NCBI GenBank assembly: GCA_000004985.1
Contig: GG738873.1
Length of the DNA: 64,000 nucleotides
Reading direction: 5' to 3' (one strand)
Source of the DNA: Naegleria gruberi
Taxonomy: Eukaryota
Under the pieces are notes generated by a model. That model had not been told where the DNA came from, did not search any database, and was given only the letters and a program-made list of their open reading frames with translations. A program made the position numbers and the translations under genes. Below are positions 6,142 through 32,751 of this stretch, piece after piece (positions within the stretch are counted from its first letter, which is position 1; the number at the start of each line of letters is the position of its first letter).

Positions 6142-8976
6142 ATGGCAAGAAACAATTTTTTTATTGCAATACTGGCTGTTTTTATTTTAGGATTAATTAC
6201 AGGTAGGTAGTAAAATCAACAAGAAGATGTAACACGGACTAGTTAATCTTTGTACCAATATTGTTAATGCTCAGGATGAAAATTCAGCAACAACAGAACA
6301 AGTGCAAAACCTTAAAGCTCAAAAACTTCTTCAAAATGATTTTTTAGAAGTGTTGAGCGTATTGCAAAAGCAGCAATCTGACCTCTCAGACGCAAACACC
6401 AAGAAGAAGCTGTTGGATACAAAGGAAGCTATTGAAATTTCTGGTCCATACCTGGCTGCTCTCAACATTACCTCGGATCAATTTACAACCATGCTAGCCA
6501 ATAAGCAAACTCAATTGCAAAGTGTAATGAGCTTGGAATTGGAGTTGAAGAATTTGATATCATTGACCCAAAACTCTGCTAATATTGTTGGTGATAACAT
6601 CAAAAATTTTGTAGCTGTAAGTATTAATTGTTTGTCTTTTATATTTAACATTAGCAGTTGTTCACAAAAAAAGCCTACACTGTGGATCAGTATCAAAATA
6701 CAACAAAAGAGGTACATAGATATGATCTTAATATTACCCAAGTTGATGCAATTGTTCCAAACTATCTAACTGCTTACCCAGTGAGAAGAATTAGAAATCG
6801 TATTTCAGTCGGTTTTCAACACGTGTTAGTACTAAACCAAAATGGGAAGTTGTACTCTACAGGTATTCCTTCTTATGGAAATCTGGGAAGAACCAACACT
6901 GATTCAAGAATGTTATATAACTTGCCTGTTCAAGGATTGGATGGTCTTGATATCCTTCAATTTGATGCCAATTATTACTCAAACCTTGTTTTAACCAATG
7001 ATGGAGTTTATTCATTTGGGTTGAATGACAAATCACAGATGGGAACTGGAGATAGAAATGACAGATATGTCGCTGGAAAGGTTTACGGATTTGGTGGACA
7101 AAATATTGTTCAAATAGCCATGGGACGCCAAGCATCCTATGCCATTGATTCCAACGGCAAGTTATGGGCCTGGGGTGACAATACCATGTACGGTCAATTG
7201 GGAGACAGAACCTTTTCTGAAAAGAATCGTCCTTTCCCAGTTTACAGCTATGGCGCTATTAACAGCACGGCTGTGGTTAGGGTTTGTGGGGGTGGTTACT
7301 TTGCTCTTGCCTTACTTGCAAATGGAAATATGGTTTCGTTTGGTGATAATTCATATGGACAGCTAGGTGTTAATAACCCATTAATTTCAAAATCGGGAGA
7401 ACCATTGTTGGTGGTTAAACCTTCAGAACTAGCCTCAAAGACAATTGTTGACATTCAATGTGGTTATGATTATGCAATGGCCCTTACATCATCAGGTGAT
7501 GTATATACTTGGGGAAACAACAATTACGGCCAATTGGGTGATGGAAGTTCTGGAGGTAAATCCCCAATTCCACAAAAGATCACAATTTCTGGCTGTACAG
7601 TATCCCAAATCCACACAAAATACCAAAGCTCATTTGCTTTGTGTACAAGCAACGAACTGTATTCATGGGGAATGAACTCTGTTGGCCAACTTGGAAGAAC
7701 TAGTAACCAAATACCAACAACTACCCCAACCAGAGTTGATCCTTCGTCGTTCTTGTCCAGCACTGATGACTATTTGGGCTTCCCCAAAATTATTGAGATA
7801 TCCTCCAATTTTAACAACATGTTCCTTACCACATCTGATTTGAGTATTTATGGAACCGGATCATGTATTGATGGTTCTAAACAGCAATTTGCCTTCTTCT
7901 ACACTACAAGATCCAGTGATTATGGGGCTTGCACTAGTTCCAATATTTTCTCCTTGAATTCAATGTCAAAGATGCCAACTTTCTCTTCTATTAGTTATCC
8001 AGTATCCCTTAGAAAGGCCCAATATTTTGAGATTGGAACAAGAGCCTACCTCCTTCAAACAGATACAGTAGTTCCAACCAGACCTAATAATGGCTTTAAT
8101 ATGTATTATAAGCAATTTGCTGATCCAGAAAACTCTTGGTCTATTATCGAACGAAATGAAGCCACCAACGCAGGTTTTCCTGTATCAATTTACAACAGCC
8201 ACTTCCTTAAAGCTGATGAATATGTCTACTTCTTTGGTGGTTTCATCAATGACGAAGTTTCAAATAAGATTTACAGGGCTCCAATTTATGATGTTGAATC
8301 TGGATGGGAACTCTGTAATTTTACTCTACCATATTCTGTTGCAAGTGGTATGACAACAGTTATTAATGGATACATTTATATTTTTGGTGGTATAACCAAG
8401 ATCTATTCCTACAATGGCGGTGAACTTCCAACTCTTTCTCCAACAGTTACAAACCAAATAATTAGAGCCCCAATTAATAATTTGACAAATTGGATGGTTG
8501 TTTCAGGAAAGGTATTGCCATCCGCTATACACAGTGCTTCCATTACAATTATTGACAAGTATGTCTATTTATTTGGAGGTTCCCCATCTTATTACTCTTC
8601 CAGCCAAGAAGTTTACAGAGCTTTGATTACTGATCCTTCATCTTGGGAAATGACTTTTGGTTTACTTCCATTCTTTGTAACAAATGGTGCTTTTATCTCA
8701 ACTGGTAATGAATTGTTAATGGTTGGAGGCACAGCTTCTGGCAGTTTAGTGAATGGAGGATTTATGGCGATTTCAAAGAAGTCACAATTTGACCCAGTCG
8801 GCTCATGGATGGCTAGTGATGTATTCTTACCTTCAAATGCTGCCCAATCTCTCATTACAGTGATTAGAAACGACACAGTATTGCTCTACGGAACTGAATT
8901 GCACCGTAGTACTTCTTACACTCCCCACTCACCAAAAATTGGAAGAGTTTTGAAGCTTGCACTCGATCTGTACTAA
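6142..8976 (+). CDS. Secreted RCC1-repeat + Kelch-repeat double-propeller protein, family member 1. Exons: 6142..6202, 6243..6616, 6655..8976.
   Basis: Exon 1 encodes MARNNFFIAILAVFILGLIT and the signal ends ...IVNA|QDEN. The introns are gtaggt...ag (40 nt) and gtaagt...ttag (38 nt). There are about seven RCC1 blades, for example YSWGMNSVGQLG and WAWGDNTMYGQLGD. These are followed by Kelch blades, for example YVYFFGGFIND, YIYIFGG and YVYLFGGSP. Stop is TAA at 8974-8976. Confidence 0.8.
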
Positions 8977-9451: not shown

Positions 9452-12363
9452 TTAATTTTGGGAAATTACAATAGTTGATATATGAGAGTGTAATCCTTCC
9501 ACTGTTGTGATAATGGATGAAGTTGAATTTGCAGCTGCTGTAATTACTGATACAATGTAACCAACAAGCGGTAACTTTAAATCAATAACTATCCATTTTG
9601 AAGGATCATTTTTAAAACAAGCTAATACATTAGTTGAATTTCCTTCATAATCCTTTCCTCCCCAGATGAAATAATTATCGTTATCACTTGAAATTTTAGC
9701 TTCCACTCTGCTGTATGGAAGAACTTCATATAAATTCTTCCATTTCCAGTCTGCGAGTGATGCTACATGTATATCACCCACAGATTGAACTCTGTTCACT
9801 CTTCCTCCAAAGAAGTACATAGTTTTATCAATTATCTCAATAAATACATTGTAAACCGATCTTGGTAAAACTTGGTTCACAACTTCCCACAACAGCACAT
9901 TGCTAATTTTTGCTCTCATAATCTTTGCTGTTGGTACTCCTTTTGCAATCATTCCACCAAATATATAGACATATTCCTCAATCATTTTAAGTACACCATT
10001 AGCAACTGGATATGGTAATGTTTCATTATAGATTGTAACTTGGTTAAAAGATTGCTTTGAAATAATTCTATTTGAAAAGGTGCCATTCACAATACCCCCA
10101 AAATAAAAAGTCAATCCATCAAATGCAAGTTGGTGAGTGCTAAAGAATGACTTGGCAAAAAACTTTGGGTCAATTGAAAAATTGAAAGTGGGGCTAGAAA
10201 AATAAAAGGAACTAGCTAAAATGACAGAGCTAGAGTTGGAGCTTGACAACGACTTAGTGTAAATTGGTATTTTTGTGAAACTAACTAAATCAAAACCAGT
10301 ATTAGGAATTGGATGATCCATAACTATCACTCTCTTCTCTTCATCTTCATATATTGGAAGAGTTCTTTCTTCTACTGGAAAATAATTAAAAGATCCCATC
10401 ATCATTACACCTGCCATGTAATTTTGCTCATTAATGAACCCACTTGGAAAAGGTGTCACTTTAAAATAACCACCAACCATAATGCCAATTTGCCCATTAT
10501 AGGAATAAACTACTAGAGAAGAATCAGTAGATATTTGAACATCCAATAAATCTTCATATGCTGTTTCGTGAATTTGTACAAATCTTGGTTGCCTAATATC
10601 TCCACAACAAGGAACTTCGTACGATACTGACTTGATGCAAGCTGCTGGTTTTTCACAAGTGCTAATTGTATAACCAACAAATACAGGGTGAGCAGAAACA
10701 GAACAAGTGCCTGAAGACAACAATTGGCTTATTTCTGCTGCTCTCTCTGGAAGAATTCCACTCTCATATAGCCTATTTTCACCAGTAAATACGATATCCA
10801 CATTATGGGCAGGAGCCCACTCTTCACAAGCATGTTCAATGCAAATGGCTGTCAGTACTCCAGTTGCACACTGACACTTTTTCTTAGTGTTAACTCCCCA
10901 AGAAACCACTCTATTGTCAGTGGTAATGGCGTTCACAAGACCACCTCTGTGTCCAATTTTTTCAAATTTAACATCTCCAATGAACTGCCTACTAACTGGA
11001 ACGGGGGAGGGTGATGATGTTTCATCATCAGTTCCAACACAAGGATCATACCTTCCCCAAGCATAAATATTTCCATTTGACAACAAAGCTACAGTTGTTT
11101 CAGTTCCACATTGAATATCTTTTACAAAAACTCCTTCAATCCAGTCTGGAAAGCTGCTCCTAGAGATTGGTGTTGGTGATACACTGGATGCAGATCCCTA
11201 AAAGAAAACAGTAATTAATAATATGTCAAATATTGTACTCACCCAAGTATAAATGTTACCATCATAACCAATTCCAAAGGCATCTTTATCTTGTAAGCAC
11301 ACTTTTTCCATTCTAATATTTGAATTCATTCTTGTTGGCTTTTCAACATTGATATTGTCATTGTTTCCAATTATTGGGCCACCTATTCCCCATATAAAAA
11401 CGTACCCAGAATTATCTATAGCTACTGAATTAATTGCTGCATTCATGTATGCAAAAGTGTTATCATGATAAAGTATTGTAAGTGGTAAGGAAATAAATTT
11501 GTTTGTTCCTGAAGGAGGAGGTATGCCCAATCTTCCATCTGAGTTTTCTCCCTTTCAAAAATTTAGATAGATATAAAATATTGACAACCTACCCAACCAA
11601 TGATTCGTTTGTTGGTCAACACCATTGCATGAACTTTTCCACATACTAGTTGTTTGATGAATTCTCCATCTACAAGTCCTAAATTAACAGCAGCTGGTTC
11701 TATAGTTGGTGGTGAGCCCGGTCTTCCAAGAGGAACAGTCAGACTATATTCATATCCAAATGACATAAGCTGCCCACTTGAAAGATCAATGTACATTCCA
11801 TACTGATCTCCAAGGCATATGAATGTTCTTTCAGAAATAAATTTTCCACGTACTTCTCTTGAAATGCTGACTTTGTTCTTTCGTATGGATGTAGAGTTCA
11901 TTTTCTCCCTTGCAAAATAAGGGGATTTAAAGGCTTCTTGCAATGTTGTTAGGTTTTTTACAAATCGTTGTTCTATACTGTTCCACTTTTCTTGAGCAAT
12001 TTTGTTCATGCACTTTGTTTCCTTCAGCGAATGGAAAAAGGATTGCCTCCTTTGCAAAGTTTGCTTAAATGCATACATGTTTCTATTATTTGTTTCTCCC
12101 AAACTAATTATTTTCATTTCATGATCAACTTGTTTCAATTGAGCTTCTACTTCATTAATATATTCAAACATTGTTCCATTTAATTGATTAACTTTCTCTC
12201 TGTGGGCTTTTGCATTCATTAGGGCTTCAAGATAGATCTCCGAAGACATTTTGGTGTTTGTTGTTAGTGTTGCATTCATTACATTTGTTGAGTTGAGAGC
12301 CACAACTTGCAAACAACATCCCACAGTCAGGAAAAACAAAAGAACAACACTCCAACCACCCAT
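9452..12363 (-). CDS. Secreted RCC1-repeat + Kelch-repeat protein, family member 2. Exons (minus strand): 12363..11592, 11550..11243, 11197..9452.
   Basis: The signal peptide is MGGWSVVLLFFLTVGCCLQVVA, followed by a coiled-coil-like stalk carrying NxT sites. Intron 1 is gtaggt...aaag (RC at 11591-11551). Intron 2 is gtgagt...tttag (RC at 11242-11198). RCC1 motifs include GENSDGRLG and YAWGRYDPCVG. Kelch motifs include YVYIFGGMIA, MYFFGGRVN and YFIWGGKDY. This paralog has a unique Cys-rich insert between the propellers (CQCATGVLTAICIEHACEEW...CEKPAACIKSVSYEVPCCGD). Confidence 0.75.
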
Positions 12364-13610: not shown

Positions 13611-15016
13611 ATGGAAAAACTGAAAAACGAAACTCTCCCACAATACCCACCAACGGACAATAATAATACAGACTACTCGATCACACAGACAACAGATGAC
13701 CACTCTAAAAACAATAGTACACCACTTTTAAAGAGTACCACAATCGTTTTAGAACAAGGAAATTATAGAATTCATGTTCTAGGGACTGCTCATGTATCGG
13801 AAGAATCAGCAAGAGAGGTGAGAGAATTAATTTTGGAAAAGAAGCCCTCGATAGTAATCTTGGAATTATGTCAAGGAAGAAGTTCAATTCTTGTAGATAC
13901 CAACATTTTGAAAAAGAAGCCTTTTGAAAAATCGGAAAATAGTTTTGATGGAGAAAACAGCTCACCCATATTGATGGAAAAGACAGAGGAAATTGATCCT
14001 CACAGTAATAACAATAATAGACAAAGTTTATTTTCATTACTGATGGATTACGTAAAGAGTAAGTTTAAATCTTTTTTTGTTTGACCTTATTTTCATCATT
14101 AGAAAAGAGGAAAATTACACTTTTTCAATTGGCACTTGTATATTTCATGCAAAAGGTTACAAATGATTTGAAAATACAAACCGGAATTGAAATGAAAGCA
14201 GCATATGATATTTCTGTAAAATTAAATTCGAGAATAATTCTAGGAGATAGACCAATAGATATTACGTTGAATAGATGCTGGCATTTGATGGGCTATTTCC
14301 AAAAATTCAAATTTATTTCACATATTTTATATGCCTGCACACAGACATTTTCCTCTAAAGACATTGAAATGTTGAAACATTCCGATATTTTGACGGATAT
14401 TATTGAAGAGTTTGGAAATCAATTCCCACAGCTTGCAAGAGTGTTGGTTGATGGTATGTAATGAATAATTCTAATTTTGTAATCATTTTCAAAAGAACGT
14501 GATGCCTATCTTACTCATTCAATTCTCAAGGCAATTGAATATCTGGAAAATGAAAGGCTCAGAAGAGATCAATTGGATAGTGCAGATGATGTTGAATCTA
14601 ATAATTCTAACATTTCTTCAAATAATTCAACAGCTTTGGAAGAATCAAAAATAACAACAACCAATACTACAGATATATCGACCATTACTAATGAGAGTAA
14701 GGAAAATCAAATTGAGGAGGAAGGAGCAAACAGTTGGAGTGAATCAGAAGATGAGGAAATAGATACAAGGAGTGGCGATAATTCAAGTGAAACAACTCAA
14801 CCAGATTTGGATCCAAATACAATTGTTGTAGTTGTTGGGGCAGGACATGTTAACGGTATTTCAAAATACTTTTCCAATCCAGAAAAGATTAACAGACGAG
14901 AAATTATGAAACGATACAAGAATGAGTCTAATACGGGAAATATTCTTTTCATTTTTGCTATCCTTTTCACTTTATTGGGAATTGTAATGTATTTGTTCAA
15001 AGATATGTTCATGTAG
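13611..15016 (+). CDS. TraB-family protein (pheromone-shutdown TraB / TIKI-like metalloprotease fold). Exons: 13611..14058, 14103..14453, 14496..15016.
   Basis: The motifs HVLGTAHVSEESAREVRELILEKKPSIVILELCQGR and, in exon 3, ERDAYLTHSIL match the TraB family GTAH..S / ERD signatures. The C-terminus has VVVVGAGHVNGI and a terminal hydrophobic segment. The introns are gtaagt...cattag and gtatgt...caaaag. Confidence 0.65.
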
Positions 15017-15339: not shown

Positions 15340-18207
15340 ATGGCCAAAGATAAAAAGAAGAAGGAAACATCTCCATCCTCTTCCTCTACATCTAATCTTT
15401 CTGATGCTCCAACAAGAATTTCTATTTCGTCATCTGACTCTGGATTTTCAAAGAATAGTCAAGATGACCAAAGCTTTGGTGAAGGAGAAGAATATATCCC
15501 AGGTGCTTCATCATCATTGTTATCAGCTTCCTCTGCTGCTAATTCAAAGAAAAAACATAGATTTTCCATTCGTAATTTATTAGGAGGTAAGAAGGAATCC
15601 TCAAAGGAATTGAGTCCTGGCAGAAATTCCGTTACCCAATCAACAGGTTCTCTAGATGAGATGAAAAAGGCAGGATTGAGTGGTACAAATATTGGTGTTT
15701 CACTTGATGTTCCAACTTTGGACACTTCTTCCTCAAGTGATCAAGCTCTCTTGGATTTACAAAAGAGAATCAAGGAATCTGATGTTAATGGAACAAGTTC
15801 AATGTCTCCTTCCTCTCCAAGTGGTTCTACTTCTGCCAGGTCAAATAATTCCCCTCGTGTCTCTTCACCAATTGCTTCATCAACTGGTTCTCCACGCACT
15901 AATCTTGCTTCCAATGAAAAGATTATTCAAATTGATGAATTTGAAAGATTAAAGAATTGTGAACAAGAATTGGCAACCAAATTGAATGAAATTAAAAATT
16001 TTGAAGAAGAGTTGGCTCAAACTAATGCCAAACACAAGCAAGAATCGGAAGAAAAAGAAGGTCAATTACAACAACTTAAAAAGAGTATTGAGGTATTGAC
16101 CAATCAATGCGAACAATTGAAGCAATCCATTTCCAATTCTGCTCCTGTTGAAACTCAACAACAACCAACGAGTGGTGTGGTTGATATATCACTTGTTGAC
16201 CAATTAAAGAAGGAAAATGAAGAAAAATTGCAACAAGTCAAGAATGAACATGCTACTCTCTTAGAACAAACAAAGAAGGATCTTGCAACCGAGTTGGATC
16301 AAGTGAAGAAACAAGTTGAAACTCTTCAAACCAGTATTACTCAATTAACCAAAGAAAAGCAGGAACAAGAAACCAAGATTAAAGAATTGACTTTAGAAAA
16401 TGAAGGTTTAATGGATGACTTGGTGAATTTGGATTCTAGGGCTTCCGACGTTAAAAAAACATTGGAAAAGAAGAATAAGGATCTTGCTACTGAAGTTGAT
16501 GAACTAAAGAAGAAACTCCAAGAACAAACATCCACCGAAAAAAAGGAAACTCAAAAGGCCATCCTTGAACAAAGTGAAAAAGTTGTCTCAAACACAACTG
16601 GAGATCATGCTGAAAAGGTTAAGGCAGAATTTGAAAAATTGAAACGTTGGAATCAAGAACTCAATGATATCATGTCCACTATTGAGAAAGAACGTGATCA
16701 ATTGGCCTTGCAAGTGGAAGAGCTCAAGAAGAAGCTTGAAGAGTCCTCCGAAACAACCAAAAAGGCAGTGCCAACATCAGGTGAAGATGCTGATGCCGAA
16801 GAACCAGCAGATATAGAAACTCTCTTGAAGAATTTGGAAGAAATCACATTGGAAAGAGATGTCCTTGAAGAATTACGTCAAGAAGAACTTTTGGAATATG
16901 AAAAGGAAAAGGAAGAATTAGCTGGTGAAATACTGGCTCTTAAGGAAGAATTGGAAAAGATTAATGGAAGTCAACCATCCTCTACACCTGTTGCCACAAC
17001 TCAACCTCTTGTAGATACAACAGAGTTGGACAATTTGAAGAAACTTGTTCAATCTCTCCAGTCAGAGAATCAAGAATTAAACAAGGTGTCAAGCAAGTCA
17101 GAACCAGAAAAGATTGTAGAACAAGTTGAAAGGGTAGTTGAGAAGGAAGTCGAGAAAATTGTTGAAAAAGTTGTCGAAAAGATTGTTGAAAAGGAAGTTG
17201 AAAAGATTGTAGAGGTTGAGAAGATTATTGAAAAGCTTATTCCTGTTGGAGATGGTGAAGCCAGTGTTGAAATTAACAATTTGAGAGAACAAGTTGATAA
17301 TTTGGTAACTCAACTCGATCAAACTCAAGAACAAGTGAGAGATTACGAAAAACAATTTGAGAGTGATCGTTTGATTTTGGAACAACTCAAGAAGGAATTA
17401 TCTGCTGAAACTCAAAAGGCCAAGAATGCTGAAAGTGAGCTCAAGAAGGCCAAGAACGAACTTGAAAAGCAAGTTTCTTCTGTTTCTACTGCCTCTGCCA
17501 TTGTTACTAAGCAAGAAACCTCCAGTGCACCAACAGAAAATACCATCCAAGAACAACCATCCATCCCAGAGTCATCAGAATCAGCTGTCACCAGTGAAGA
17601 ATCAGCCTCTGTCAGACCAGCATCTTTTGAGGCTCCTGTCATTTCCTCCTTAGAAAAGGAAGACTTGTACAAGATTCGTTCCAAGTATAGTTATTATGAC
17701 TCTGATGAAGAACACAACTCTGTTCCTCAACAACCAGTTGCTGCCGTACCAATTAAAAAAGAAGAACCAGAAGAAGAGGAAGAACCAGCTAGAGACGATG
17801 AAGACGAAATTTATCAAGATGAACTCAAAAAATTCGAAAAGGATTTGGATAAGATGTTGAGTAAAACATCTATCAATCTCTCCAAAGGAAAGATTACCTC
17901 ACTCAAAGAACTCGAATTGTTATGCATCAAGTTGAAATTCAACAAGAGTGTTAAAATTTTGGACTTGTCAAGCAATACTTCCATTGATAATAGAGGTTTA
18001 AAGATTATTTGTGATATGCTTCGATGGAATACTGCTGTAACTGATCTTTATCTCGAAGACACTAGTATTACAACCCTCAATCCTCATCTTTTTGATGTTT
18101 TCAATGAAAATTTCAAACTTACCAATGTTGCCTTCTCAGAAGATTACATCCCAAGTGCAGAATTAGACAAATTGGATACTCTATTAGACAGAAATGAAAC
18201 CTACTAG
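15340..18207 (+). CDS. 955-aa protein with a Ser-rich disordered N-terminus, about 500 aa of coiled coil and a C-terminal RNI-like leucine-rich-repeat domain. Single exon.
   Basis: One uninterrupted ORF. It has E/K/Q/L-rich heptad-like sequence. There is an internal (E/V)EK(I/V)VEK tandem coding repeat at about 17100-17230. The C-terminus reads LKELELLCIKLKFNKSVKILDLSSNTSIDNRGLKIICDMLRWNTAVTDLYLEDTSI, typical of RNI-type LRRs. Confidence 0.7.
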   Translation: MAKDKKKKETSPSSSSTSNLSDAPTRISISSSDSGFSKNSQDDQSFGEGEEYIPGASSSLLSASSAANSKKKHRFSIRNLLGGKKESSKELSPGRNSVTQSTGSLDEMKKAGLSGTNIGVSLDVPTLDTSSSSDQALLDLQKRIKESDVNGTSSMSPSSPSGSTSARSNNSPRVSSPIASSTGSPRTNLASNEKIIQIDEFERLKNCEQELATKLNEIKNFEEELAQTNAKHKQESEEKEGQLQQLKKSIEVLTNQCEQLKQSISNSAPVETQQQPTSGVVDISLVDQLKKENEEKLQQVKNEHATLLEQTKKDLATELDQVKKQVETLQTSITQLTKEKQEQETKIKELTLENEGLMDDLVNLDSRASDVKKTLEKKNKDLATEVDELKKKLQEQTSTEKKETQKAILEQSEKVVSNTTGDHAEKVKAEFEKLKRWNQELNDIMSTIEKERDQLALQVEELKKKLEESSETTKKAVPTSGEDADAEEPADIETLLKNLEEITLERDVLEELRQEELLEYEKEKEELAGEILALKEELEKINGSQPSSTPVATTQPLVDTTELDNLKKLVQSLQSENQELNKVSSKSEPEKIVEQVERVVEKEVEKIVEKVVEKIVEKEVEKIVEVEKIIEKLIPVGDGEASVEINNLREQVDNLVTQLDQTQEQVRDYEKQFESDRLILEQLKKELSAETQKAKNAESELKKAKNELEKQVSSVSTASAIVTKQETSSAPTENTIQEQPSIPESSESAVTSEESASVRPASFEAPVISSLEKEDLYKIRSKYSYYDSDEEHNSVPQQPVAAVPIKKEEPEEEEEPARDDEDEIYQDELKKFEKDLDKMLSKTSINLSKGKITSLKELELLCIKLKFNKSVKILDLSSNTSIDNRGLKIICDMLRWNTAVTDLYLEDTSITTLNPHLFDVFNENFKLTNVAFSEDYIPSAELDKLDTLLDRNETY

Positions 18208-20652: not shown

Positions 20653-23600
20653 CTAAAAAACCATGTCACAATATACTTTAATTGGTATTGTTGTTCCATT
20701 ATTTAGAATACTATAGAAACCACCACCAATCAAACCTTGATAAACACGAGAGGTGTTAGTTGGATTTTTGTAGGAAGAGCAAGAATCAGCAACAGTTCCA
20801 TCAGCATAGTGTCTCCCATTACTGTAATCCACTATTCCTATTAATTGACATCTGTCACCAAATCTACCATGACTACATTGACATTCATCATTACCAACGC
20901 AAATACCAGCTGAAGAGCAGACACTTGGATTAGTAGCCTCGTAATATTGTGGACCAGTATACCCTGTAACATTACTGAAACCAAAATCTGGGTTAGAACA
21001 TTGATAGCACAACAATGGATACTTAGTGCACCAATCAAAATGGGTCAACTCTATATTTGTATCAGGAATAGCAGTCCATGATCCTATAATATCACTCTTC
21101 TTACCAAAGGCAAAGTAAGGTCCAGTTGAACTAGTGGATGAGTTTGTACCACCAAAAATATATAACTTATCTTCTGTTGAGGAAAATGGACCGGTATTAG
21201 TAATGAAATAAGGAAGGAGACCGAAGGTCATCTCCCAAACAGTTGGAGATTGTAATTTTGCTCTAAAGATATTAATACCACTTCCTCGTACTGTTGAGCT
21301 GCCACCAAACAAGTAGACATAATTATCAACCACTTCGATAAAAGCAGAATGCAGAGGAAGGGGAATAACATCTTGTACAATCTCCCATTTTGTTATGCTT
21401 GTTGTTGAAGCTCGCATTATACAATTGGTTACATTGTGTTTCATTGTTGGAGCAATATCTGCAGTTGCATTGAACTCATAGATGGAAATGATACCACCAA
21501 AAATGTAAACATAATCTCCTACTGCCATAAGCATACCAGATGCTATTGGGATTGGAAGTTTTTCGTTAATTAATTCCCATGATTGAAACAAATCATAGAC
21601 AGGTGCTCTGTAAATTCTATTTGAAATATCATCATCCACAACACCTCCAAACAAATAGACATATTCACCATGTTTAAGGACGTGTGTATTATAAATAGAG
21701 TGAGGAAAACCAGTGTTGGTAGTTTCATTATACTCAATCATATTCCATACCATGTCATTTGCTGTAACGTTTGTGGTGTACATATTGAACCCGTTATTTC
21801 TTCTTGTTGGAAGAGTGTTCTCTGTTTGAAGTAAATATGCAATATCACCCATTTCGAAATAAACTGGTTTTCTCTGATACCAGTATAATTGCATGTTGGT
21901 TTGGTGTCGTACTTGAGTGAAAAGTCCGTTAATAGAGAAAGCAAACTTCTTTGTTTGAACGGTTTCAAAGCAATCTTGTCCAAGGAAAAACTGGGTATTA
22001 AAACAGCCACCTGTGGCATGAATGGATCCATCAGCAAGAAAAAGGAAGGAATTATAAACATTGGAAGTAATATCTACAATTGGGTGAGCTGAGTATTTTA
22101 CAAGTTTGGGCGATAGAATTTTTAATCCATAAGAAAGTCCAGCACCTGTTTGCCCAATATCATTCAATCCCCAAGAATAAAAATACCCTGGTTTAGATGC
22201 ACAAACAGCAAAACTCACATGACCTTTTGTGTGGATCTTGGTTACGGTGCAGTTAATACCAGAAATCAAAGTTGGTATTGGTATGTTTGTTGTGTTACCA
22301 GTTCCAACTTGTCCATACATATTACCACCAAAAGCAAAAACTTTACCACTGGCTGTAAGGACAAGGTTATGAAACATACCACATTGAATATCTTTGATTG
22401 TCTCATTTTGGAATGGTTTCATCTTTACAACAACAGGCTCACCACTTGAAACGTAATCACCAGTACCCAATTGACCGTATGTGTTGTCTCCAATTGCTAC
22501 CAGATTACCTGTTGATGTTAAAGCAAGTACACTACCATTTCCAGCACAAACTCTAACAACTGTTTGATTTGCTAAAGCTCCGTATCTATAAACAGAGAAT
22601 GGTCTATTCTTTTCATCCCAAGTTCTGTCACCAATTTGACCTTGATCATTAGCTCCCCATGCCCACAATTTTCCATTTTCATCTATCGCATACGAAGCAT
22701 AATTACCCATAGCAATTTGAACTATTTTAGTGTCAAAGTTAAAACCATGAACTTTTGTTGCTTTCAACACAGATTTAGTTCCACCAGTTGCTAATTGTGA
22801 ACGATCATTTAAACCAAAAACATAGAGACCATTCGTAGTCAACACCATGCTGCTATTTCTCTGAGCTTCAATTTGAAGAATTTCTAATTCGTCAAGAACT
22901 TCAACAGGGTTATTGTAGAGGAGTCTAGAATCCTGACTTGTTCTTCCCAAATTTCCATTATTGTAGACACCAGTCGAGTATAATTTACCATTAGGCATTA
23001 GTACAAGTACGTGATTTGCACCTGCAACAATTCTGTTTCTCACTCTGACAATAGAAGAATGATATTCATAGGAAGGAAAAATACCTGGTCTAGAGTTGAA
23101 ATACATTTGGTGGTTCATTGAAAAGTTCAAAGTGTTTTGTCTGAATAATAATTCCTCTCCATAGATAGCTTCGGTGAAGTTCTTTACAAAACTAAATTGT
23201 CGATGCTCAAAATAAACTTACATTAATCATATTAAAACTATTCTCTCCCAATATTCTTTGTGAGTTATCAGCCAAGGTAATGACATTTAGTAATTCCACC
23301 TCCATGCTCAATGCTCTTTTCCAGTCCTTTTTCTTTGATGTGACCATTTGATCAAACATTGTTTGATTAACTCCCAAGTCATCCAATATCATTGAAGCTC
23401 CATCAAGTGCTTCTTGCATATTCACTAGCTTTTGCATTATCTTTGAGGAGTAAAAATCTTCCTTTTGCTTTTCGAGTCCAACCAGAACTCTATTGTAACT
23501 ATTTTGTTTTTCTTTCCATCCTTTTACAAGTTCAACAGCATGTTGTTGTTGATCATTTGAGGCATCAAATGTATGTACACTCAATGTGAAGCAAATTATT

Positions 23601-23701
23601 ACTATGAAAAATTTATAGTAAGCGGAAATATACAACCTACAAAAAGCTACACACACACATTGCAATTTAGACCGCAAACCAGCGTTGAGGGTCTTCATCA
23701 T
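20653..23701 (-). CDS. Secreted RCC1-repeat + Kelch-repeat protein, family member 3. Exons (minus strand): 23701..23222, 23181..20653.
   Basis: Exon 1 encodes MMKTLNAGL..., the hydrophobic stretch FFIVIICFTLSV and a helical stalk, ending ...NMIN. It is followed by a 40-nt intron gtaagt...taaag. Exon 2 encodes NFTEAIYGEELLF...VRVRNRIVAGANHVLVLMPNGKLYSTG. RCC1 blades include WAWGANDQGQIGD and VAIGDNTYGQLGTGD. Kelch blades include YVYLFGGVVDD, YVYIFGGIIS and YVYLFGGSST. There is an extra Cys-rich C-terminal tail. The start codon is uncertain; an alternative GTG lies at 23725. Confidence 0.75.
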
Positions 23702-24077: not shown

Positions 24078-26846
24078 TTATTTATTTTCAAATGGTTGAG
24101 TTAATAATGGTATGGTACACAATGTGTGAGTCTTGTTGCTCATTAACCTGGTGAAGATTCTCTTGATATCAGTGCCGTAGAGATAAAGATTATTACCAGA
24201 GAAGGTTGGAGTGAAAGAAGAAACAGAAGGGATAACATCTCCCGAAACAGTCCATGAACCAACTGGGTCACTTGTTGGAGTGTAAACAACTCTGTAATTG
24301 AAATCATTCAGAGATCTTGAATGTCCTTTGCTTGGATAACCACCAAATATGAAAATGTAATCTCCTGTTACCACCATTGGCCCATCAGAGTAGGTAAATG
24401 GCAATACAGAGAAGGTATTTTCCCACAGATAGGGGAAAATATATCTAGCTCTCAAAATATCAGAGTAGGCTTCTTGAGATGGTGATCTACCCCCAAAAAT
24501 ATAGATATAATCACCGATCATGGCTATGTTACCACCATACACAGGTTGTGGGAGTTTTTTAGAGACTATTTCAAAGTTGTAAGGTGCATTGATAGGGGCA
24601 CGAATTATCATGTCAGTAACATTATTAATTGAAATGTCAAAGTTCAAGATGCCACCATAAATGTAGATGTAATCGTCTACAACCAATGACATACCAGAAG
24701 CAACTGCATATGGTAAGGTATTTTTCATCAACTCCCACCCATTCTCTATATCACTGACAGGAGCACGATAAATCTTATTGCTGAGGGTTCCATTCACCAC
24801 ACCACCATAAAAATAAATATATTCTTGAGCTCTGGCTATATGCGTGTTATAAATGGTACCAGGGAAGGTTCTTTTTGTCTTGTTTTGGTAATTCACAAGA
24901 TCCCAAGTCATAGGGTCACTCAAGTTTCTATAATACAACTGGAAGCCATTATCCACAAGTGGATAATACTTATCACCAACAAACTGATAGGCCTTATCAT
25001 CAGTTTCAAAATATGGGTAATGTCTTCTTTCAAGAGTAAAGCCAGTGGTGTTGTCAAAGGTAAAAACTTTTCTAAAATTGGATGTTACAGGTTCAAAAAC
25101 GTCAAACAATTGTCTTTCGGTTTGGGAGGAATATCCAGCACCTACAAACGCTCCATCGGTTGTCAAGCCAACAGCCGACCTGTACATCATTGTTATTTCA
25201 GTAATTTTGTGGTTGTATAATTCATCATTGGAGAGAGGAATAACTTCTGTTGCCACATTCATAAGAGCAGAAAGACCACCTGTGTGACCTAATTGCCCAT
25301 TAGAATTATCACCCCAAGAGAACCACTTTCCATCGTTACAAAGTACAAAGGAATTTCTAAACTTGGAATAGAGGGCAACAATAGATCTGCCAGCACCAAT
25401 ACCAGCCATTTCAATTGGTGTAGGGACAGTGAGGTATGGTGAATTGATACCTGTTCCACACTGACCTTTGTCATTTTTTCCCCAAGCAAAAACTTTTCCT
25501 GATTCTGTCAATACAGTTGTAAAATCATCACCACACTTCAAATCAACAACTATCTCTCCTGCAAAGCTTTCTGGTAAATTTACAGCAACAGCTTCCATTT
25601 TATATTCAGCGGAGGAGGCGCTTCCAATACCTAGTTGACCGTATGTGTTGTCGCCAAATGAATACAGACTATTATTTGAGGTTAAGACAGCAGTGTGTGA
25701 CAAACCACCACAAACCTTAACAATGTACTGATTGGCTAGAGCACCATCCATGTATACATCAACCGGTCTCACCTTTGTCACAGTTGTTTTATCACCAAGT
25801 TGGCCTCTATGATTTCTTCCCCAGGCATATAACTTGCCGTTTTCCTTAATGGCATAGAAAGTAAAAGCACCAGCAGCAATTTGCTCAACATCTTGAGGAC
25901 CTTGCAAGTCCCAAGAGAATAATTTGAATGGTACTTTTTTGTGAACGGCAACGGTTCCATCACCAACTTCGCCATAGTCATTTCTTCCCCAAGTGTAAAC
26001 AGCATCACCAGCCAAGAGAATGTTACTATAGTACGAAGAATCGAATTGAAGAATTGTAAGATTGACATTTGTAGAATAGTTTGGCAACTCAACTGGTGTA
26101 CTAAGTGTTGGAACATATCCTGTGCCCATAGTAGTTCCTAATCTACCCAAACATCCATCACATTCAACACCCCAGGAATAAAGTTTTCCATTGCCATGAA
26201 GATAAAGTCCATGGTCTCTTCCAGCTGATAGCCTATTTCTTTCACGCACAACCTTCTTAAAGGTTGCATAGTTTGGCAGATACCCATATGTAAGATTAAA
26301 ATGCAACGGAACAGGAATTGTACTAATGTTAGTATTGGTCCACTTAGAAGGATCATTCAAATAGTTCAAGGAATCTATTACCAGATCTTTCAAGGAACTA
26401 TATGTTGTATTAAAACCTTGATTGGTGAGAGCAATGAGACTGTCAAGTTCTTTTTCAACAGAAACAACATTCTCATATTGGGTAACCTTATTTTTAAGAA
26501 TTGCTTCGTATTGGTCTTGAGGGATACCAAAATCAGATATAAATTCTTTCGAGTACTTTACAGCTTCACTAATAACAGTGATTTTTTCTTTAATATTTGC
26601 TTTGACCATGTCTGCTTTTTGTTGTAAATAATCTTGATTAACAGCATAATAACTATCTCTTCTTTCTCTAAGACTAGCAATATTATAGTAAGCTTCATCT
26701 AACGGGAGTTGCTCTGATAATACTTGATTGATTACTGTTATATTAAGCATTGTAAATAATCATTTAATATTAATAAATAGAAACATCAACCTACCCGAAG
26801 CAACAAGCAATAGTAACACAACCACAATTGTGGCATTCAGCTTCAT
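24078..26846 (-). CDS. Secreted RCC1-repeat + Kelch-repeat protein, family member 4. Exons (minus strand): 26846..26794, 26732..24078.
   Basis: Exon 1 encodes MKLNATIVVVLLLLVAS followed by a phase-1 donor gtaggt. The acceptor is ...ataacag, after which the sequence reads VINQVLSEQ.... Then come a helical stalk, GYLPNYATFKKVVRERNR, seven RCC1 blades (YSWGVECDGCLGR, YAWGRNHRGQLGD) and Kelch blades (YIYFYGGVVNG, YIYIYGGILN, YIYIFGGRSP, YIFIFGGYPS). Confidence 0.8.
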
Positions 26847-27018
26847 TTTGTGATGTAGCGGGAGATGTGATGGGTGTTGTTTTTTTAAAAGTAGTTGCAG
26901 TTTGCTGCTGTAAGCACTCGCCCAAATCAGCTTAAATACAGCTGTGTACAGTACAGTCGTAATGAAATTACCACTACGAATTATTTTATCGCTTAATACA
27001 GCAGAAAAAAACATCACA

Positions 27019-29799
27019 ATGAAAATCAAGCCATCCCCAAACACGCACATCAACAAACGGGTGGTTTTTTGCGTCCTCCTCGCTTTGCTAGGACTTGGTA
27101 AGTAGTGTGGAGGAATAATATGTTGACACGTTTAAAGTATTTGTAGTGGTCAAGGCTCAATCAGAACAATCTTTCAGTGAATATGTACTTTCCTTAATGT
27201 TCATGATTCAAAAAAGACAAAGTTTGATGGGAATTGAAACAGATTATTTAAGTGAAGCTGACAAAATTATCTACAAGGAGAAAATAATTTATAATACAAA
27301 ATATGCAATGGAAAGGTCTCTAGCCTCTATTAACAAGCTTGGTGTTAAAGAACAAACATATACCATACTTCTCTCAGCCAAACAAAACGAAGCAGCAGCC
27401 GCTTGGGACTCTCTTGTTGAAGTTAACAGTTATATCAATGTTACTAAGCATGCTGTTTCAGTTGCCTACTCAACCATTGATTCAATCAATGAGGTATGTT
27501 TTTTTACAATTTTTGTTGCTGAACCAGTTAGAAATTATCGAATGTACTTCTAAGCTACCACCATTGGCAAAAAACTGACCTCGATTTATTGCCAGCAAAC
27601 ATGACTCTCAATACTACAGTTGGTTATCTCCCAAATCATGTAATGTATTTCCCAGTTATGAGAATTAGAAATAGAATTTCTGCTGGATTAAATCATGGTT
27701 TGTTCCTTGGCCCTGGTGGTAATTTGTATTCTTGGGGTGTTGATATGGGTGGTTCTTTGGGAAGATCTGTTAACACACCAATGCCAAGTTTGGATTTGCC
27801 TGTAGAATTGAAGAACGTTACCATTCTTCAGTTCACTAACTCTTACTATGGAAATCTGTTGCTAGCTGATGATGCCGTCTATTCATGGGGAAAGAATGAC
27901 TATGGAGTTGATGCTGATGGTACAACTGTGAATCATTACCAACCAAGGAAGGTCTTTTCATGGGATTTACAAGGTCCTAAAGGAATCGCTCAGATTGCTT
28001 CTGGCCCATATAACTTTTATGCTATTGACGAAAATGGTAAACTCTATTCATGGGGAAAGAATGATTTTGGCCAACTTGGCGATAGAACTCCAATTGACAA
28101 ATGGAGACCTGTGGACGTTTTTATGAAGGGTGCTTTGCTTAATCAAACAGTTACCAGAGTTTGTGGTGGTTTGACTCATACTCTTGTCCTTGCCAACAAT
28201 GGAATGCTTTACTCTTTTGGTGATAACTCTAAAGGACAACTTGGTATCGGAGTTAGTTCCTCAGTTATTGCAAAGAAATGGGAACCTGTCCTCATCAATT
28301 TCCCATTCAATGACACAATTGCAGATATTCAATGTGGTGATAACCACAACCTGGTGCTCTTGACTGGAGGTGCCATGTATGCTTGGGGTCTTAACGACTA
28401 TGGGCAACTTGGAGATAATACCACAACAACAAGAACAAAACCAACCAAAGTCAACACACTCTCAGCTATTGGTACAAGAAAAGTTGTCAAGATTGAATCA
28501 AGACTCAACGAGAATTTTGCCTTCTTGGAAAATGGAGCCATGGTTTCATGGGGTCAAAATGATTATTCTCAATTAGGTCATTCCAAAATAGCAATTATAG
28601 GCAATATTGCCACCACCTTTATAAATGTTCCGGTAGAGTTTAGCTTACCCAATGGTTATATGCCTTCTGAAATAGCAATCATGAATGGATCAACTGTAAT
28701 TCTTGGTGCAAATGGCACCCTTTATGGTGCTGGATTTTCTTCAGAAAGTACCAGAAAACTGTTGAACATCACCACTTCCCAAACTAAGTTTACCCAGTGT
28801 TACACCTTCCCACCTATATACCCAGTTATGGAAAGAAGACATTATCCATATATCCAACTCAACGAAAAGAGCTATGCATTTATTGGATCCAAGTACTTTT
28901 CTTACCCTGATAATGGGTTTGATGGATACGTGAGGAATAACACCTCTCCAGAATTGTGGTCAATGATTGATTATCAAAATACAACATCACAGATGTTCCC
29001 TGGTTCCATTTACAATACTCATATTTTGAGAACTAACCAACATGTTTACTTCTATGGTGGTTTTGTTAATGGATCAATTTCAAACCTTATTTACAGAGCT
29101 CCAGTGGATAATATTGAAAATGGATGGGAAATTGTTAAGCCAACGCTCCCATTCCCAGTTTCAAACGGTATGTCCATTTTATTGGATGACTTTTTCTACA
29201 TATTTGGTGGCTTGACTTGGTTTAATAGCACAGACAAAGGATTCGTATCAATTGGTGTTTCATCAAGTATTTTGAGATGTCATGTTTCCAGTCCAACCCA
29301 ATGGGAAATAATGAGTGGTGGTGGGTTGCCAAGAGGTGTCTATAGTGGCAATATTGCAAGAATTGGAGATTTCGTCTATATTTTGGGTGGGCGAGTTAAC
29401 ACGGGTGATGCGTTTGCTGACATCTTCAGAGCTCCTTATTTGAATATTAGTCAATGGGAAAATACTTACTCAGTGCTTCCATTCCCTTTATCTGATAGCC
29501 CAATGATAATTACCAATAGTAGTATCTACCTCATGGGAGGATATTTGTCTGAGTACTCTCCAAATATTATTGGTACATACTATCCTCATATTATTACAGC
29601 TCCTCTAAGTGATCCAGTTGGTTCATGGTCTGTTACTGGAGACAAGCTCCCAACTAATCCAGCTTTTCAATCTGTTACTTCGCCAGTAGTTGTTGGATCG
29701 AATGTATATTTATACGGTAATGATGCCTCAAAGATAACAGAGACAAACATCAGAAGTACCACTGTCAGCTCATTCATTAAGATTCCTCTATTGGTTTAA
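27019..29799 (+). CDS. Secreted RCC1-repeat + Kelch-repeat protein, family member 5. Exons: 27019..27097, 27147..27493, 27532..29799.
   Basis: Exon 1 encodes MKIKPSPNTHINKRVVFCVLLALLGLG followed by gtaagt. The signal ends ...VVKA|QSEQ. The intron 27494-27531 is gtatgt...cagttag and is phase 0. Exon 3 reads KLSNVLLSYHHWQKTDLDLLPANMTLNTTVGYLPNH.... RCC1 blades include YSWGKNDYGVDADG and YSWGKNDFGQLGD. Kelch blades include VYFYGGFVNG, FFYIFGGLTW, VYILGGRVN and IYLMGGYLS. Confidence 0.8.
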
Positions 29800-29990: not shown

Positions 29991-32751
29991 ATGATCTGGA
30001 GCAATACTCATGTAGAGGTTAGTCCAAAGAGCATTGGGCTTGCCGTGGTATTGTTATTTGTATCAATATCTTTTATTTGTAAGTTTCTCCAAGTAATAAT
30101 TGAAGCATATAGTCCATATAGGTGTTACTTCAAGTGCTCAAACAACCCAATACAATAGCACATTAACTTCAGAATTGTTTTACAAACTGTCATTTTACAG
30201 AGAAAGACGAGATAGTTTTTACCAGATTTACACAGACTACGTTCGTCAAAATCAAGAAATAGAAGAATCCAGAATTAAATTGAAAATTAATATTACAAAA
30301 GAGGCTGTAGAAGCTTCTTTTTATGAAATTACAAAATTAAGAATTCCAGTTGAACAATACTATCAAATGCTGAATAATAAGAATATACAATACGCAAACC
30401 TAGAAGAGGTTCAGAAGGAGCTTGATGACTTGATCACATTGACTGATCTTGGTTTCCTACACACCCAATCCACCCTAGATGATGTAGAAAAAGTAAGTCC
30501 TTCAGTTATTGGAAATGCTTATCGGTAATAGTCTGCTTCTAACATTTTGTACAATGAAGAAAAATGGCAATTGGCCAAAACAAGGAAGATAGTTTCCTCA
30601 ATGAACTTTACTACGACTGTTGGATTTCTTCCTAGTCATGCTAGATCTCACAAAATACCAAGAATTAGAAATAGAGTGTCTGCAGGAAAAAATCATGGTA
30701 TTCTTCTTCATTATAATGGACTACTCTATTCTTGGGGCGCTGACAATGGTGGTGCTTTAGGTAGACCAAATAGTGCAGGTGTCTCATCTTTTACTCTCTC
30801 TACCCCTGTTGAATTACCAAAGAATATTTCCATTCTTCAATTTGTTAGCTCAAACTATGCCAATTTGGTTCTTGCTGGAGATGCAGTTTATTCTTGGGGC
30901 AGAAATGAATACGGAGTTGTTGGTGATGGTACTTTTGGTGGAAATAAGCCACCATACAAGTTATTCTCTTGGGATTTGCAAGGTCCAAAAAGAATTGAGC
31001 AAATTGGAGCTGGAGGCTACACTTTTTATGTAATTGATGAAAATGGAAAAGCATATGCTTGGGGCAGAAACAATAGAGGCCAACTTGGAGACAAAACAAC
31101 CATTGACAAGCCAAGACCAGTTGACGTCTACATGAAAGGCATTTTACTCAATCAAACAGTCATTAGGGTTTGTGGTGGAGAAAGTCACACTTTGTTGTTG
31201 ACTAGTAATAATGAATTAGCGGCTATGGGTGACAACACTTATGGGCAATTAGGTGTGGGTACTTCTGGTGGATATAAAATGGAACCAACAAGAGTCAACA
31301 TCAAATTTAATGGTACTATTATGGACATACAGTGTGGTGAAAATTATAACCTTGTCTTAACTTCCAAAGGGTTGGTATACGGTTGGGGAAGGAACGATGT
31401 TGGTCAACTTGGAAGTGGAGACAAGCTAGACAAGTTGGAACCTACTCTTATTTCCTACCTTAAAAACAGCACAGTAGTCAAGATTTATGCCAGATTTTCG
31501 ACCTCATTTGCTCTTACCAATGAAAGTTTCTTATATGCTTGGGGTAATAACAATCAATACCAATTGGGTGCTAGTTCAGCCACCCTTTTTACAGTACCTC
31601 AAAATATAACACTCCCAGAATATGTGACTGTTGTTGACTTGGCTGTCATGCAAGGAACAACTGTATTTTTAGGAAATAATGGTACTTATTACGGTAGTGG
31701 TGGATCAACTAATGGAGAACTGCTCCGTATTTCATCACAACAACCAGCCTTCGACTGGATTTATAATGGATTGAGTTTTTATGGGTTTGCAATGGAAAGA
31801 AGAAGATATCCATATTTTGAAGTGGATGATATTGCCTACCAGTTTGTAGGGGACAATTTTGCAATCTTTCCAGATAATGGTTTTTACCTTTATAAGAGAA
31901 ATATTGCAGATCCAACAATGGGTTCGATTGTAGAATACAGAAACAATACTGGCAAATTCTTCCAAGGAACAATTTACAATTCTCATATGCTTAGACTAGG
32001 AGAATATTTCTACCTGTACGGAGGGGTGGTAAATAACACTATCTCTAATGCTATCCATAGATGCAAAACATCTGATCTGGAAAGTGGATGGGAGCTTACT
32101 AGATTCAAACTTCCTTATAATGTATCAGCTGGTCAATCATTACTGGTAGATGACTTTTTCTATATTTTTGGTGGTCTTGTTAGTCTAAGTGATGACTCTG
32201 ATAGCCCAAAGTTAAGTCTCAACGTTACTGACATGATTTTGAGATTCCACATCTCTAATCCCTTCACTCCTGAAATACTATCACAAAGATTACCACTAGG
32301 TGTTTATAGTGGTCAAATTGCTAGAGTTAAGGATTATTTGTACATATTTGGGGGAAGAACTCAAGATCCAAATGCACCATACAGCGATATCTTGAAAGCG
32401 TCCTATTTCAAACCTACCGTATTTGAAAACTCTTACTCTGTTTTGCCATACCAAGTTACAGATGGTTCGTTAATAGTTACAGAAAACTTTGTTGTTATAT
32501 TTGGTGGCTTTTACAGTGGTCTTTACCCATACAATGCAGGAAGATTCAACTATGAAATTGTATCAACCCCATCTGATGAGCCTGTTGGTTCTTGGATGGT
32601 GACTGATTATAAGATTCCAGGATTAATGAGGGCGACCCCTTCAATCATGGGTTCAACACTTTCTCTGTTCGGAGAGGATGTCAGAATGGTCAACACATTC
32701 CCTCTCTCCAACAGAACTTTCACCATGTTTAACTGCACATTCTTGTTGTAA
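29991..32751 (+). CDS. Secreted RCC1-repeat + Kelch-repeat protein, family member 6. Exons: 29991..30078, 30123..30492, 30532..32751. The first acceptor is ambiguous by 9 nt.
   Basis: Exon 1 encodes MIWSNTHVEVSPKSIGLAVVLLFVSISFI followed by gtaagt. The intron 30493-30531 is gtaagt...aatag and is phase 0. Exon 3 reads SASNILYNEEKWQ...TTVGFLPSH.... RCC1 blades include YSWGADNGGALGR, YSWGRNEYGVVGDG and YAWGRNNRGQLGD. Kelch blades include YFYLYGGVVNN, FFYIFGGLVS, YLYIFGGRTQ and VVIFGGFYS. Confidence 0.8.

Follow-up and report, generated by a model that had tools for sequence, protein, structure and literature searches.

We studied six paralogous genes, hereafter g1 to g6, in a stretch of Naegleria gruberi DNA of 64,000 nucleotides (NCBI GenBank assembly GCA_000004985.1, contig GG738873.1; hereafter the window), in which positions 1 to ~47290 are real sequence, with a small gap of N at 46418-46467, and the remainder is N. 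Each gene encodes a protein that joins an RCC1-like to a Kelch propeller. Our reading, to which we give a probability of roughly 0.55, is that the six genes form an old, Naegleria-restricted family whose products enter the secretory pathway and carry the propellers as extracellular or lumenal binding modules. The analyses show directly how the genes are spliced, which domains their products carry, that a fold with two propellers is predicted, how old and how widely distributed the family is, and that g3 is truncated. For the six products we infer signal cleavage, secretion, N-glycosylation, stalk oligomerisation and ligand binding.

Gene models and predicted fold

The starts and stops of the six genes are exactly those given by a first-pass annotation of the same DNA, and each gene splices to one intact open reading frame (ORF) of 892-1002 amino acids (aa). 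The window has a GC content of ~36% and its genes are split by very short GT..AG introns; in g1-g6 these are 38-60 nt long and number one or two per gene, the 5′ regions having been read in three frames. The gene models are the following:

g1: 6142-8976, + strand; exons 6142-6202, 6243-6616 and 6655-8976; 918 aa; annotated as N. gruberi NAEGRDRAFT_49691
g1 parts: signal-like segment, aa 1-30 (6142-6271); stalk and linker, aa 31-188 (6272-6783); RCC1-like propeller, aa 189-594 (6784-8001); Kelch propeller, aa 595-918 (8002-8973)
g2: 9452-12363, - strand; exons 12363-11593, 11551-11243 and 11197-9452; 941 aa; divergent member
g2 parts: signal-like segment, aa 1-22; stalk, aa 23-177; degenerate RCC1-like domain with a Cys-rich insert, aa 178-633 (10379-11832); Kelch propeller, aa 634-941 (9455-10378)
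g3: 20653-23701, - strand; exons 23701-23222 and 23181-20653; 1002 aa
g3 parts: signal-like segment, aa 1-46; stalk, aa 47-204; RCC1-like propeller, aa 205-593 (21883-23049); Kelch propeller, aa 594-872 (21046-21882); tail, aa 873-1002 (20656-21045), with a weak EGF-like motif and a fibrinogen-like stub of ~35 aa ending KVYCDM-VF-stop
g4: 24078-26846, - strand; exons 26846-26795 and 26734-24078; 902 aa
g4 parts: signal-like segment, aa 1-17; stalk and linker, aa 18-179 (26250-26795); RCC1-like propeller, aa 180-583 (25038-26249); Kelch propeller, aa 584-902 (24081-25037)
g5: 27019-29799, + strand; exons 27019-27097, 27147-27493 and 27532-29799; 897 aa
g5 parts: signal-like segment, aa 1-30; stalk, aa 31-184; RCC1-like propeller, aa 185-573 (27658-28824); Kelch propeller, aa 574-897 (28825-29796)
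g6: 29991-32751, + strand; exons 29991-30078, 30122-30492 and 30532-32751; 892 aa
g6 parts: signal-like segment, aa 1-35; stalk, aa 36-195; RCC1-like propeller, aa 196-572 (30658-31788); Kelch propeller, aa 573-892 (31789-32748)

The shared architecture described by the first-pass annotation was found in all six genes: the spliced models, hydropathy, Pfam and the structural model of g4 together give a signal-like N-terminus, a helical stalk, a seven-blade RCC1-like propeller and a Kelch propeller. This result is independent of any single splice call. Indeed, a single uninterrupted ORF of g4 carries the stalk plus both propellers, a single exon of g2, and likewise of g3, encodes the hydrophobic N-terminus together with the stalk, and the annotated orthologue models (905-908 aa) of N. 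lovaniensis and N. fowleri stay colinear with the predicted proteins over the junctions. Both introns of g2 fall within the RCC1 domain, and its signal segment, stalk and first blades are encoded together on one exon.

The RCC1-like region was matched by Pfam with E-values from 1e-29 to 1e-74 across the genes. The RCC1 profile (PF00415, cut-off 21.7 bits) was exceeded in six out of six, with 130-169 bits in g1 and g3-g6 and 27.8 bits in spliced g2, which also reached 55.4 bits on RCC1_2 (PF13540, cut-off 22). By gene, the E-values for WD40_RLD and RCC1 were 4e-64 and 1e-43 in g1, 1e-65 and 2e-46 in g4, 1e-66 and 2e-49 in g5, and 5e-74 and 4e-50 in g6; g2 matched WD40_RLD at 8e-29 and Kelch_KLHDC2 at 1e-11. 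For the Kelch propeller, Kelch_6 (cut-off 25.3 bits) was exceeded in four of the six genes (g1 27.5, g3 45.3, g4 33.4 and g6 30.8 bits), with g5 (19.7) and g2 (10.9) below it, and the domain-level Kelch model PF24681 gave 28-50 bits against a cut-off of 50. Furthermore, a profile of the six C-terminal domains matched the solved Kelch structures (PDB) of LZTR1 (4e-11), KLHDC3 (5e-8) and KLHDC10 (2e-7), and also KLHDC2. The Pfam scans of g1-g6 returned no partner domain of intracellular type, such as BTB, HECT or F-box, and also no olfactomedin or collagen-like domain.

Full-protein modelling was done on mature g4 only. The AlphaFold model (m0e6832887db3; predicted local distance difference test, pLDDT, 79.6; predicted template modelling score, pTM, 0.71) contains two propellers and runs from three helices to 28 strands in seven blades and then to ~22 strands in six blades. 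The first-pass annotation was thus correct about a Kelch propeller, but its blade number is six rather than four to six. Using Foldseek, the first propeller was matched to UVR8 (E 1.5e-30, target TM score 0.88, 24% identity), and also to HERC2, RPGR and RCC1, and the second to KLHDC10 (5e-14) and the six-blade Kelch SAKe designs (2e-13). Repeats over the Pfam thresholds and the seven-blade fold of the g4 model place the first propeller in the RCC1-like superfamily, and likeness in profile and fold to solved six-blade propellers identifies the second as Kelch.

The stalk is an antiparallel helical hairpin of ~115 residues, a conserved and alignable module and not a low-complexity coiled coil. 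Modelled alone with AlphaFold, it folded with confidence into such a hairpin, its helices spanning residues 11-45, 47-64 and 72-125 and its core reaching a pLDDT >90. The junction that follows, previously described as conserved throughout, is less uniform: the full YLPN..RNR motif occurs in three of the six genes, while R[IVE]RNR, which forms the first strand of the RCC1 propeller, occurs in five; g2 has neither.

As adjacent paralogues at one locus, the six genes are a tandem multigene family. They do not make up the single array described before: g1-g2 and g3-g6 are two clusters ~8.3 kb apart, with unrelated genes in between (TraB-like, a coiled-coil protein and others). The orientation is + - in the first cluster and - - + + in the second and, since it is mixed, the locus is a gene cluster and not a head-to-tail array. 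The convergent g1 and g2 are 476 bp apart, and the spacers from g3 to g6 measure 376, 172 and 191 bp. A tblastn search of the window found no family members beyond the six genes.

Age, distribution and divergence of the family

Pairwise amino acid identity among g1-g6 is 22-47% overall, a wider range than the 35-50% estimated by eye in the first-pass annotation. The outlier is g2, at 22-24% to all others; among g1 and g3-g6 identity is 31-47%, with 43-47% within g4/g5/g6, 43% for g1/g3 and 31-36% between the two groups. A neighbour-joining tree of 28 members places every window gene in a clade of its own, together with its orthologue from N. lovaniensis and/or N. fowleri; g2 joins N. gruberi 73810 and N. 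fowleri FDP41_003733. These separate orthologue clades indicate that the duplications are older than the split of the Naegleria species and, thus, that the array is old and genus-wide and not a recent local burst. The local expansion proposed earlier holds as two clusters, and N. gruberi has at least three further members outside the window (68523, 49708 and 73810), two of them on the 461,873-bp scaffold of g1.

The orthologue of g4 is N. lovaniensis C9374_002175 (61% identity over 98% of the length), and no closer protein was found in the database. For g5, orthologues occur in both species, as FDP41_000283 in N. fowleri and C9374_002176 in N. lovaniensis (57% identity by tblastn, colinear over both splice junctions), and that of g6 is N. 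lovaniensis C9374_014136 (55% identity). The head-to-head pair g4/g5 is kept in N. lovaniensis (C9374_002175/002176), where the spacer is 90 nt and the other neighbours differ. Between orthologues of the g4-g6 clades, identity is 61-71% in the Kelch module, ~55% in RCC1 and 44-62% in the stalk; these values, with the substitution ratio of g3 given below, show all three modules to be under constraint.

The family is apparently restricted to the genus Naegleria, in agreement with the lineage specificity proposed before. Indeed, in an exhaustive profile search of 1.84 billion representative proteins, the named carriers of the complete linker and Kelch module were all Naegleria, the rest being environmental contigs, and the linker ERRxYPYFE...DNGF ahead of the Kelch blades is confined to the RCC1-Kelch family. 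Our search of the literature found no description of this family or of its architecture; in one pangenome study (PMC9928731), the RCC1 genes of Naegleria are counted under the generic name "UVR8". The family is present in databases as undescribed hypothetical proteins and is partly mis-annotated in N. gruberi. The public NAEGRDRAFT_68523 model begins at the junction, without signal and stalk exons, and the public g1 model XP_002676169.1 (777 aa, NAEGRDRAFT_49691), identical to ours (100% over 773 aa), lacks exons 1-2, which encode signal and stalk.

The most divergent gene is g2, whose protein contains 18 Cys, mostly within the insert of the RCC1-like domain. No close orthologue was found, and a protein database search gave no family-level match; its nearest relatives are N. 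gruberi NAEGRDRAFT_73810 (40-42% identity per domain) and N. fowleri FDP41_003733. We considered whether g2 is a pseudogene and rejected this on the basis of its intact 941-aa ORF, its two clean introns and these relatives in N. gruberi and N. fowleri.

The gene g3 is a truncated copy. It is 92% identical in amino acids to NAEGRDRAFT_68523, which runs ~190 aa beyond the KVYCDM motif and matches the first 35 positions of the Fibrinogen_C profile with 23.9 bits (cut-off 22). The tail of g3 gave no Fibrinogen_C match even at E up to 1, and thus a complete domain of ~220 aa is absent. The environmental contig L003 is 95% identical in DNA to g3 over window positions 24117-20662; homology ends at 20662, right after the KVYCDM codons, as does that to NAEGRDRAFT_68523, and the g3 stop codon lies two codons further, which places the breakpoint at 20653-20662. 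The end of homology together with the stop two codons on indicates that g3 lost ~190 aa of the fibrinogen-like domain. A missing downstream exon was sought and none was found in 19900-20653, in either reading. Compared with its 95%-identical homologue, g3 has a ratio of nonsynonymous to synonymous substitution (dN/dS) of ~0.4, a moderate constraint, and its synonymous divergence (pS) is 0.20 in the tail vs 0.02-0.03 in the propellers. This pattern suggests a mosaic history of the gene.

Cellular location and the readings considered

The N-terminus of each of the six proteins contains a single hydrophobic segment of 12-23 residues, and in all six small residues occupy plausible -3/-1 sites for cleavage (e.g. 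VNA|Q, VKA|Q, SSA|Q and VVA|L). In g1, g4, g5 and g6 this segment is encoded by its own short exon ending in phase 1. The orthologues retain a hydrophobic N-terminus, although the sequence there is not conserved. A Kyte-Doolittle scan of g1-g6 revealed no second membrane-length segment, the lone marginal window being at g2 residue 902 (1.99 vs a threshold of 1.9), and none of the C-termini (LDLY, ISQN, DMVF, FENK, PLLV and TFLL) is KDEL-like or a hydrophobic tail of the glycosylphosphatidylinositol (GPI) type.

An extracellular location is indirectly supported by three further features, of which the strongest is the nature of the tails carried by paralogues elsewhere: NAEGRDRAFT_68523 and 73810 end in a fibrinogen-like domain (Fibrinogen_C), and N. 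fowleri FDP41_001832 carries EGF repeats of the teneurin type (E 1e-18) at its C-terminus. The other two are the Cys-rich insert of g2 and the positions of the sequons, whose columns are common to up to 15 of 26 family members, with 14 columns holding six or more sequons vs a null maximum of five. Also counted for export are two neighbouring genes of extracellular type, a teneurin-EGF/LamG gene at 3-6122 and an EGF-repeat gene at 46367-47197.

The statement that RCC1-like domains are classically intracellular is correct for eukaryotes only. Like g1-g6, UVR8, the RCC1-like domains (RLDs) of HERC2, RCC1 and RPGR are seven-blade propellers of RCC1 repeats, and these proteins, which lack a signal peptide, reside in the cytosol, the nucleus or the mitochondria. 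Unlike them, g1-g6 place the RCC1 domain after a signal-like N-terminus and the stalk and join it to a Kelch propeller. If g1-g6 are extracellular, the Ran guanine-nucleotide exchange activity that defines RCC1 proper is not expected in them, nor are UV-B-sensing features expected. The same statement fails for bacterial surface or secreted RCC1-repeat proteins and phage tail fibres, which are abundant and use an RCC1-like propeller outside the cell or to bind receptors, a use that agrees with export of g1-g6. Indeed, the best matches of g4 after Naegleria are bacterial RCC1-repeat proteins with type IX secretion system (T9SS) sorting, FN3, Ig-like or cadherin-like domains (30-35% identity per domain), and the matches in BFVD, a viral structure library, include phage tail fibres with RCC1-like propellers. 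Thus, outside eukaryotes, RCC1-like propellers are routinely extracellular. These bacterial and phage proteins differ from g1-g6 in having other partner domains, without the hairpin stalk and without the Kelch fusion. We found no support for acquisition of the RCC1 domain from bacteria: it scores about as high, per domain, to bacterial proteins (150-170 bits) as to HERC2 RLD3 (153 bits) and UVR8 (133 bits), and there is therefore no signal of gene transfer for this domain.

The Kelch propeller of g1-g6 shares with LZTR1 and KLHDC2/3/10 the six-blade fold and the blade motif hhhhGG...Y...W; LZTR1 and the KLHDC proteins are intracellular ubiquitin-ligase adaptors, unlike the exported proteins proposed here. 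Weak matches of the window Kelch domains were also found to the Pfam attractin/LZTR1 propeller family. Attractin is extracellular, has CUB, EGF and C-type-lectin domains and is not known to have an RCC1 domain. Outside Naegleria, the closest relatives of this module are giant proteins of Patescibacteria, or candidate phyla radiation (CPR), with 110-135 bits and 30-35% identity per propeller, compared with 45 bits for the best solved eukaryotic Kelch. These giants (from metagenome-assembled genomes, MAGs, of Saccharimonadales, Paceibacterota and Parcubacteria) share with g1-g6 the blade motif IYRAP..W...LP......Y.Y.FGG; they differ in length (1,000-7,000 aa), in having up to 24 matched stretches and discoidin-like and tail-fibre-like modules, and in lacking both the RCC1 domain and the stalk. 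The origin of the Kelch module may lie in bacterial surface proteins of this Patescibacteria type, but common ancestry or a transfer is a weak lead, as near-consensus repeats may inflate the CPR scores. As a separate observation, the MAG GCA_017973795.1 (L002 1136-12844) and P0128-P0137 hold proteins of 3,900-7,100 aa with many six-blade Kelch propellers made of near-identical blades. Proteins of this type have discoidin-like and tail-fibre/endosialidase-chaperone-like ends, and their named sources include Saccharimonadales and Paceibacterota.

In our preferred reading, a short N-terminal signal peptide, on its own phase-1 exon in four of the six genes, would direct the protein to the endoplasmic reticulum. 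The mature protein would open with a long antiparallel helical hairpin (roughly 54 residues, ~80 Å long), most likely a spacer or an oligomerisation stalk, and would continue with a rigid seven-blade RCC1-like propeller and then a rigid six-blade Kelch propeller. The propellers, either extracellular or within a lumenal compartment, would be non-enzymatic binding modules, and possible targets are glycans or proteins on bacterial prey, on the substrate, on other cells or on the cyst wall. Some paralogues append C-terminal EGF and fibrinogen-like modules of lectin type. Since the paralogues diverged before the Naegleria species split, their specificities are probably distinct.

Several observations weigh against export of soluble binding proteins. 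The signal-peptide call rests on hydropathy and the -3/-1 rule. The stalk is helical as the first-pass annotation stated, but it is not studded with NxT: sequons number 7-17 per protein (z from -1.7 to +2.5 vs shuffles), with 3-5 in stalk and linker, and are mildly enriched overall; the conservation of their positions may partly or simply stem from shared descent. Weak NanM-family Pfam matches (E ~4e-4) were found, and Kelch propellers can be enzymes. Finally, the hydrophobic stretches of g1 (~23 residues), g2 (~20) and g6 (~21) are long enough to span a membrane as an uncleaved anchor. With such an anchor the products would be type II membrane proteins, the hairpin a membrane-proximal stalk and the propellers a surface receptor for phagocytosis or adhesion. 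That the stalk directly follows the hydrophobic segment, that no other anchor and no GPI-like C-terminus is present, and that the layout resembles, by analogy, the anchor-stalk-propeller plan of paramyxovirus attachment proteins would all fit this alternative. We consider it rather unlikely, as in g3 (12 residues) and g5 (14) the hydrophobic core is too short to cross a membrane, the -3/-1 positions are plausible in all six, and the charged n-regions are short in g1, g2 and g4.

The NanM matches (g1 and g4, E 4e-4 to 8e-4) lead to another possibility, that these are secreted or lysosomal/phagosomal enzymes in which the Kelch propeller, or the propeller pair, is catalytic, as in galactose or glyoxal oxidase or the sialic-acid mutarotase NanM, and processes carbohydrates of prey or cyst wall. 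Kelch is indeed the most conserved module between orthologues, and five polar residues (R5, H66, S86, N87 and R146 in alignment A1) are invariant in the six genes. These residues, however, fall in the repeated structural motif (IYNTH, SN.IYRAP), the NanM matches reach ~19 bits against a cut-off of 45, and the best Kelch matches are the substrate-recognition propellers of LZTR1 and KLHDC3/10/2. Furthermore, we saw no Cys/Tyr/His copper-site pattern, and the propeller is six-bladed, while that of galactose oxidase has seven blades; a catalytic role is thus improbable. The proteins could also be intracellular RCC1-type regulators or adaptors (HERC, RCBTB or Kelch adaptor-like), if the N-terminus had no functional signal or the 5′ exons belonged to other transcripts. 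The RCC1 scores given above, as high to HERC2 RLD3 and UVR8 as to bacterial extracellular proteins, and the public models of g1 and 68523, which begin after the stalk, agree with this. Nonetheless, the exon structure of g2, g3 and g4 ties the stalk to the signal or to the propellers, the orthologue models keep a hydrophobic N-terminus, and the EGF/fibrinogen-like tails of paralogues, the conserved sequon positions and the lack of a BTB, HECT or F-box partner domain all point away from the cytosol, which makes an intracellular role highly improbable.

As regards the overall plan of exported RCC1-Kelch proteins, olfactomedin/myocilin, ficolins and angiopoietins also combine a signal peptide and a helical or oligomerising stalk with a C-terminal propeller or fibrinogen-like head. 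The plan of g1-g6 resembles theirs by this analogy, and some family members also end in fibrinogen-like sequence; they differ in that the heads are RCC1 and Kelch and the stalk is, in the model, an intramolecular antiparallel hairpin and not a parallel coiled coil. A more specific proposal, which we regard as unlikely, is a soluble, stalk-oligomerised, Naegleria-specific repertoire of the pattern-recognition or opsonin type, in which anciently diversified propeller pairs, extended in some members by fibrinogen-like or EGF modules, would recognise different bacterial prey or surfaces. If true, it would be an amoebal counterpart of the ficolin- and olfactomedin-type innate lectins, built from domains not otherwise so used in eukaryotes.

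Upstream motif, neighbouring genes and implications

A short motif, WTACAGY (core TACAG), occurs within ~120 nt upstream of the start codon in all six genes. The positions are as follows:

6049 (upstream of g1): WTACAGY
12464 (upstream of g2): WTACAGY
23734 and 23754 (upstream of g3): WTACAGY
26907, 26936 and 26996 (between g4 and g5): WTACAGY
29936, 29948 and 29958 (upstream of g6): WTACAGY
26847-27018: g4/g5 intergenic spacer, 172 bp, head-to-head; putative bidirectional promoter

In the 150 nt upstream of the six genes, TACAG/CTGTA is found 5, 1, 2, 4, 5 and 4 times, compared with 0-1 per 150 nt upstream of seven non-family genes and a mean background of 0.36 in the window. WTACAGY may thus be a shared cis-regulatory element of the family. 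Furthermore, the 10-mer TTACAGCAGC of the g4/g5 spacer recurs, in opposite orientation, in the orthologous 90-nt spacer of N. lovaniensis (L001, ~7308-7319).

The other features of the window are the following:

3-6122, - strand: one open frame of >2040 aa that extends past the window start, head-to-head with g1
13611-14084: TraB-like fragment, between the two gene clusters
15340-18207, + strand: 955-aa Ser-rich coiled-coil protein with a run of (E/V)EKIVEK repeats and no Pfam match, between the two clusters
38671-39942, + strand: 423-aa ORF matching Phage_int_SAM_5 (E 7e-7, over cut-off); the flanking ORFs have no family match
46367-47197, - strand: Cys-rich EGF-like region, then degenerate tandem repeats with very many NxT sequons (NFT..NITIGNFT...); ORF interrupted by assembly gaps (N at 46418-46467 and from 47290)
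47290-64000: run of N, a scaffold gap or padding

The protein encoded at 3-6122 contains 116 Cys, teneurin-type EGF repeats (E 9e-38) and three Laminin_G_3/ConA-like domains (E 1e-26) and is a giant protein of extracellular type. The ORF at 38671-39942 may be a mobile element of the tyrosine-recombinase type, Crypton-like.

If g1-g6 are exported, the family would show, in a eukaryote, an RCC1-like propeller that acts extracellularly, joined to Kelch and placed on a helical stalk. The public N. gruberi models of the cluster look incomplete, as those of g1 and 68523 lack the signal and stalk exons and the database gave neither a protein closer than 61% for g4 nor a family-level match for g2; proteome-wide secretome predictions would therefore miss the family. 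Its conservation across Naegleria, including the brain-eating N. fowleri, makes it a candidate for the recognition of prey, surfaces, host tissue or the amoeba's own cyst wall, and a possible genus-specific surface or secreted marker.

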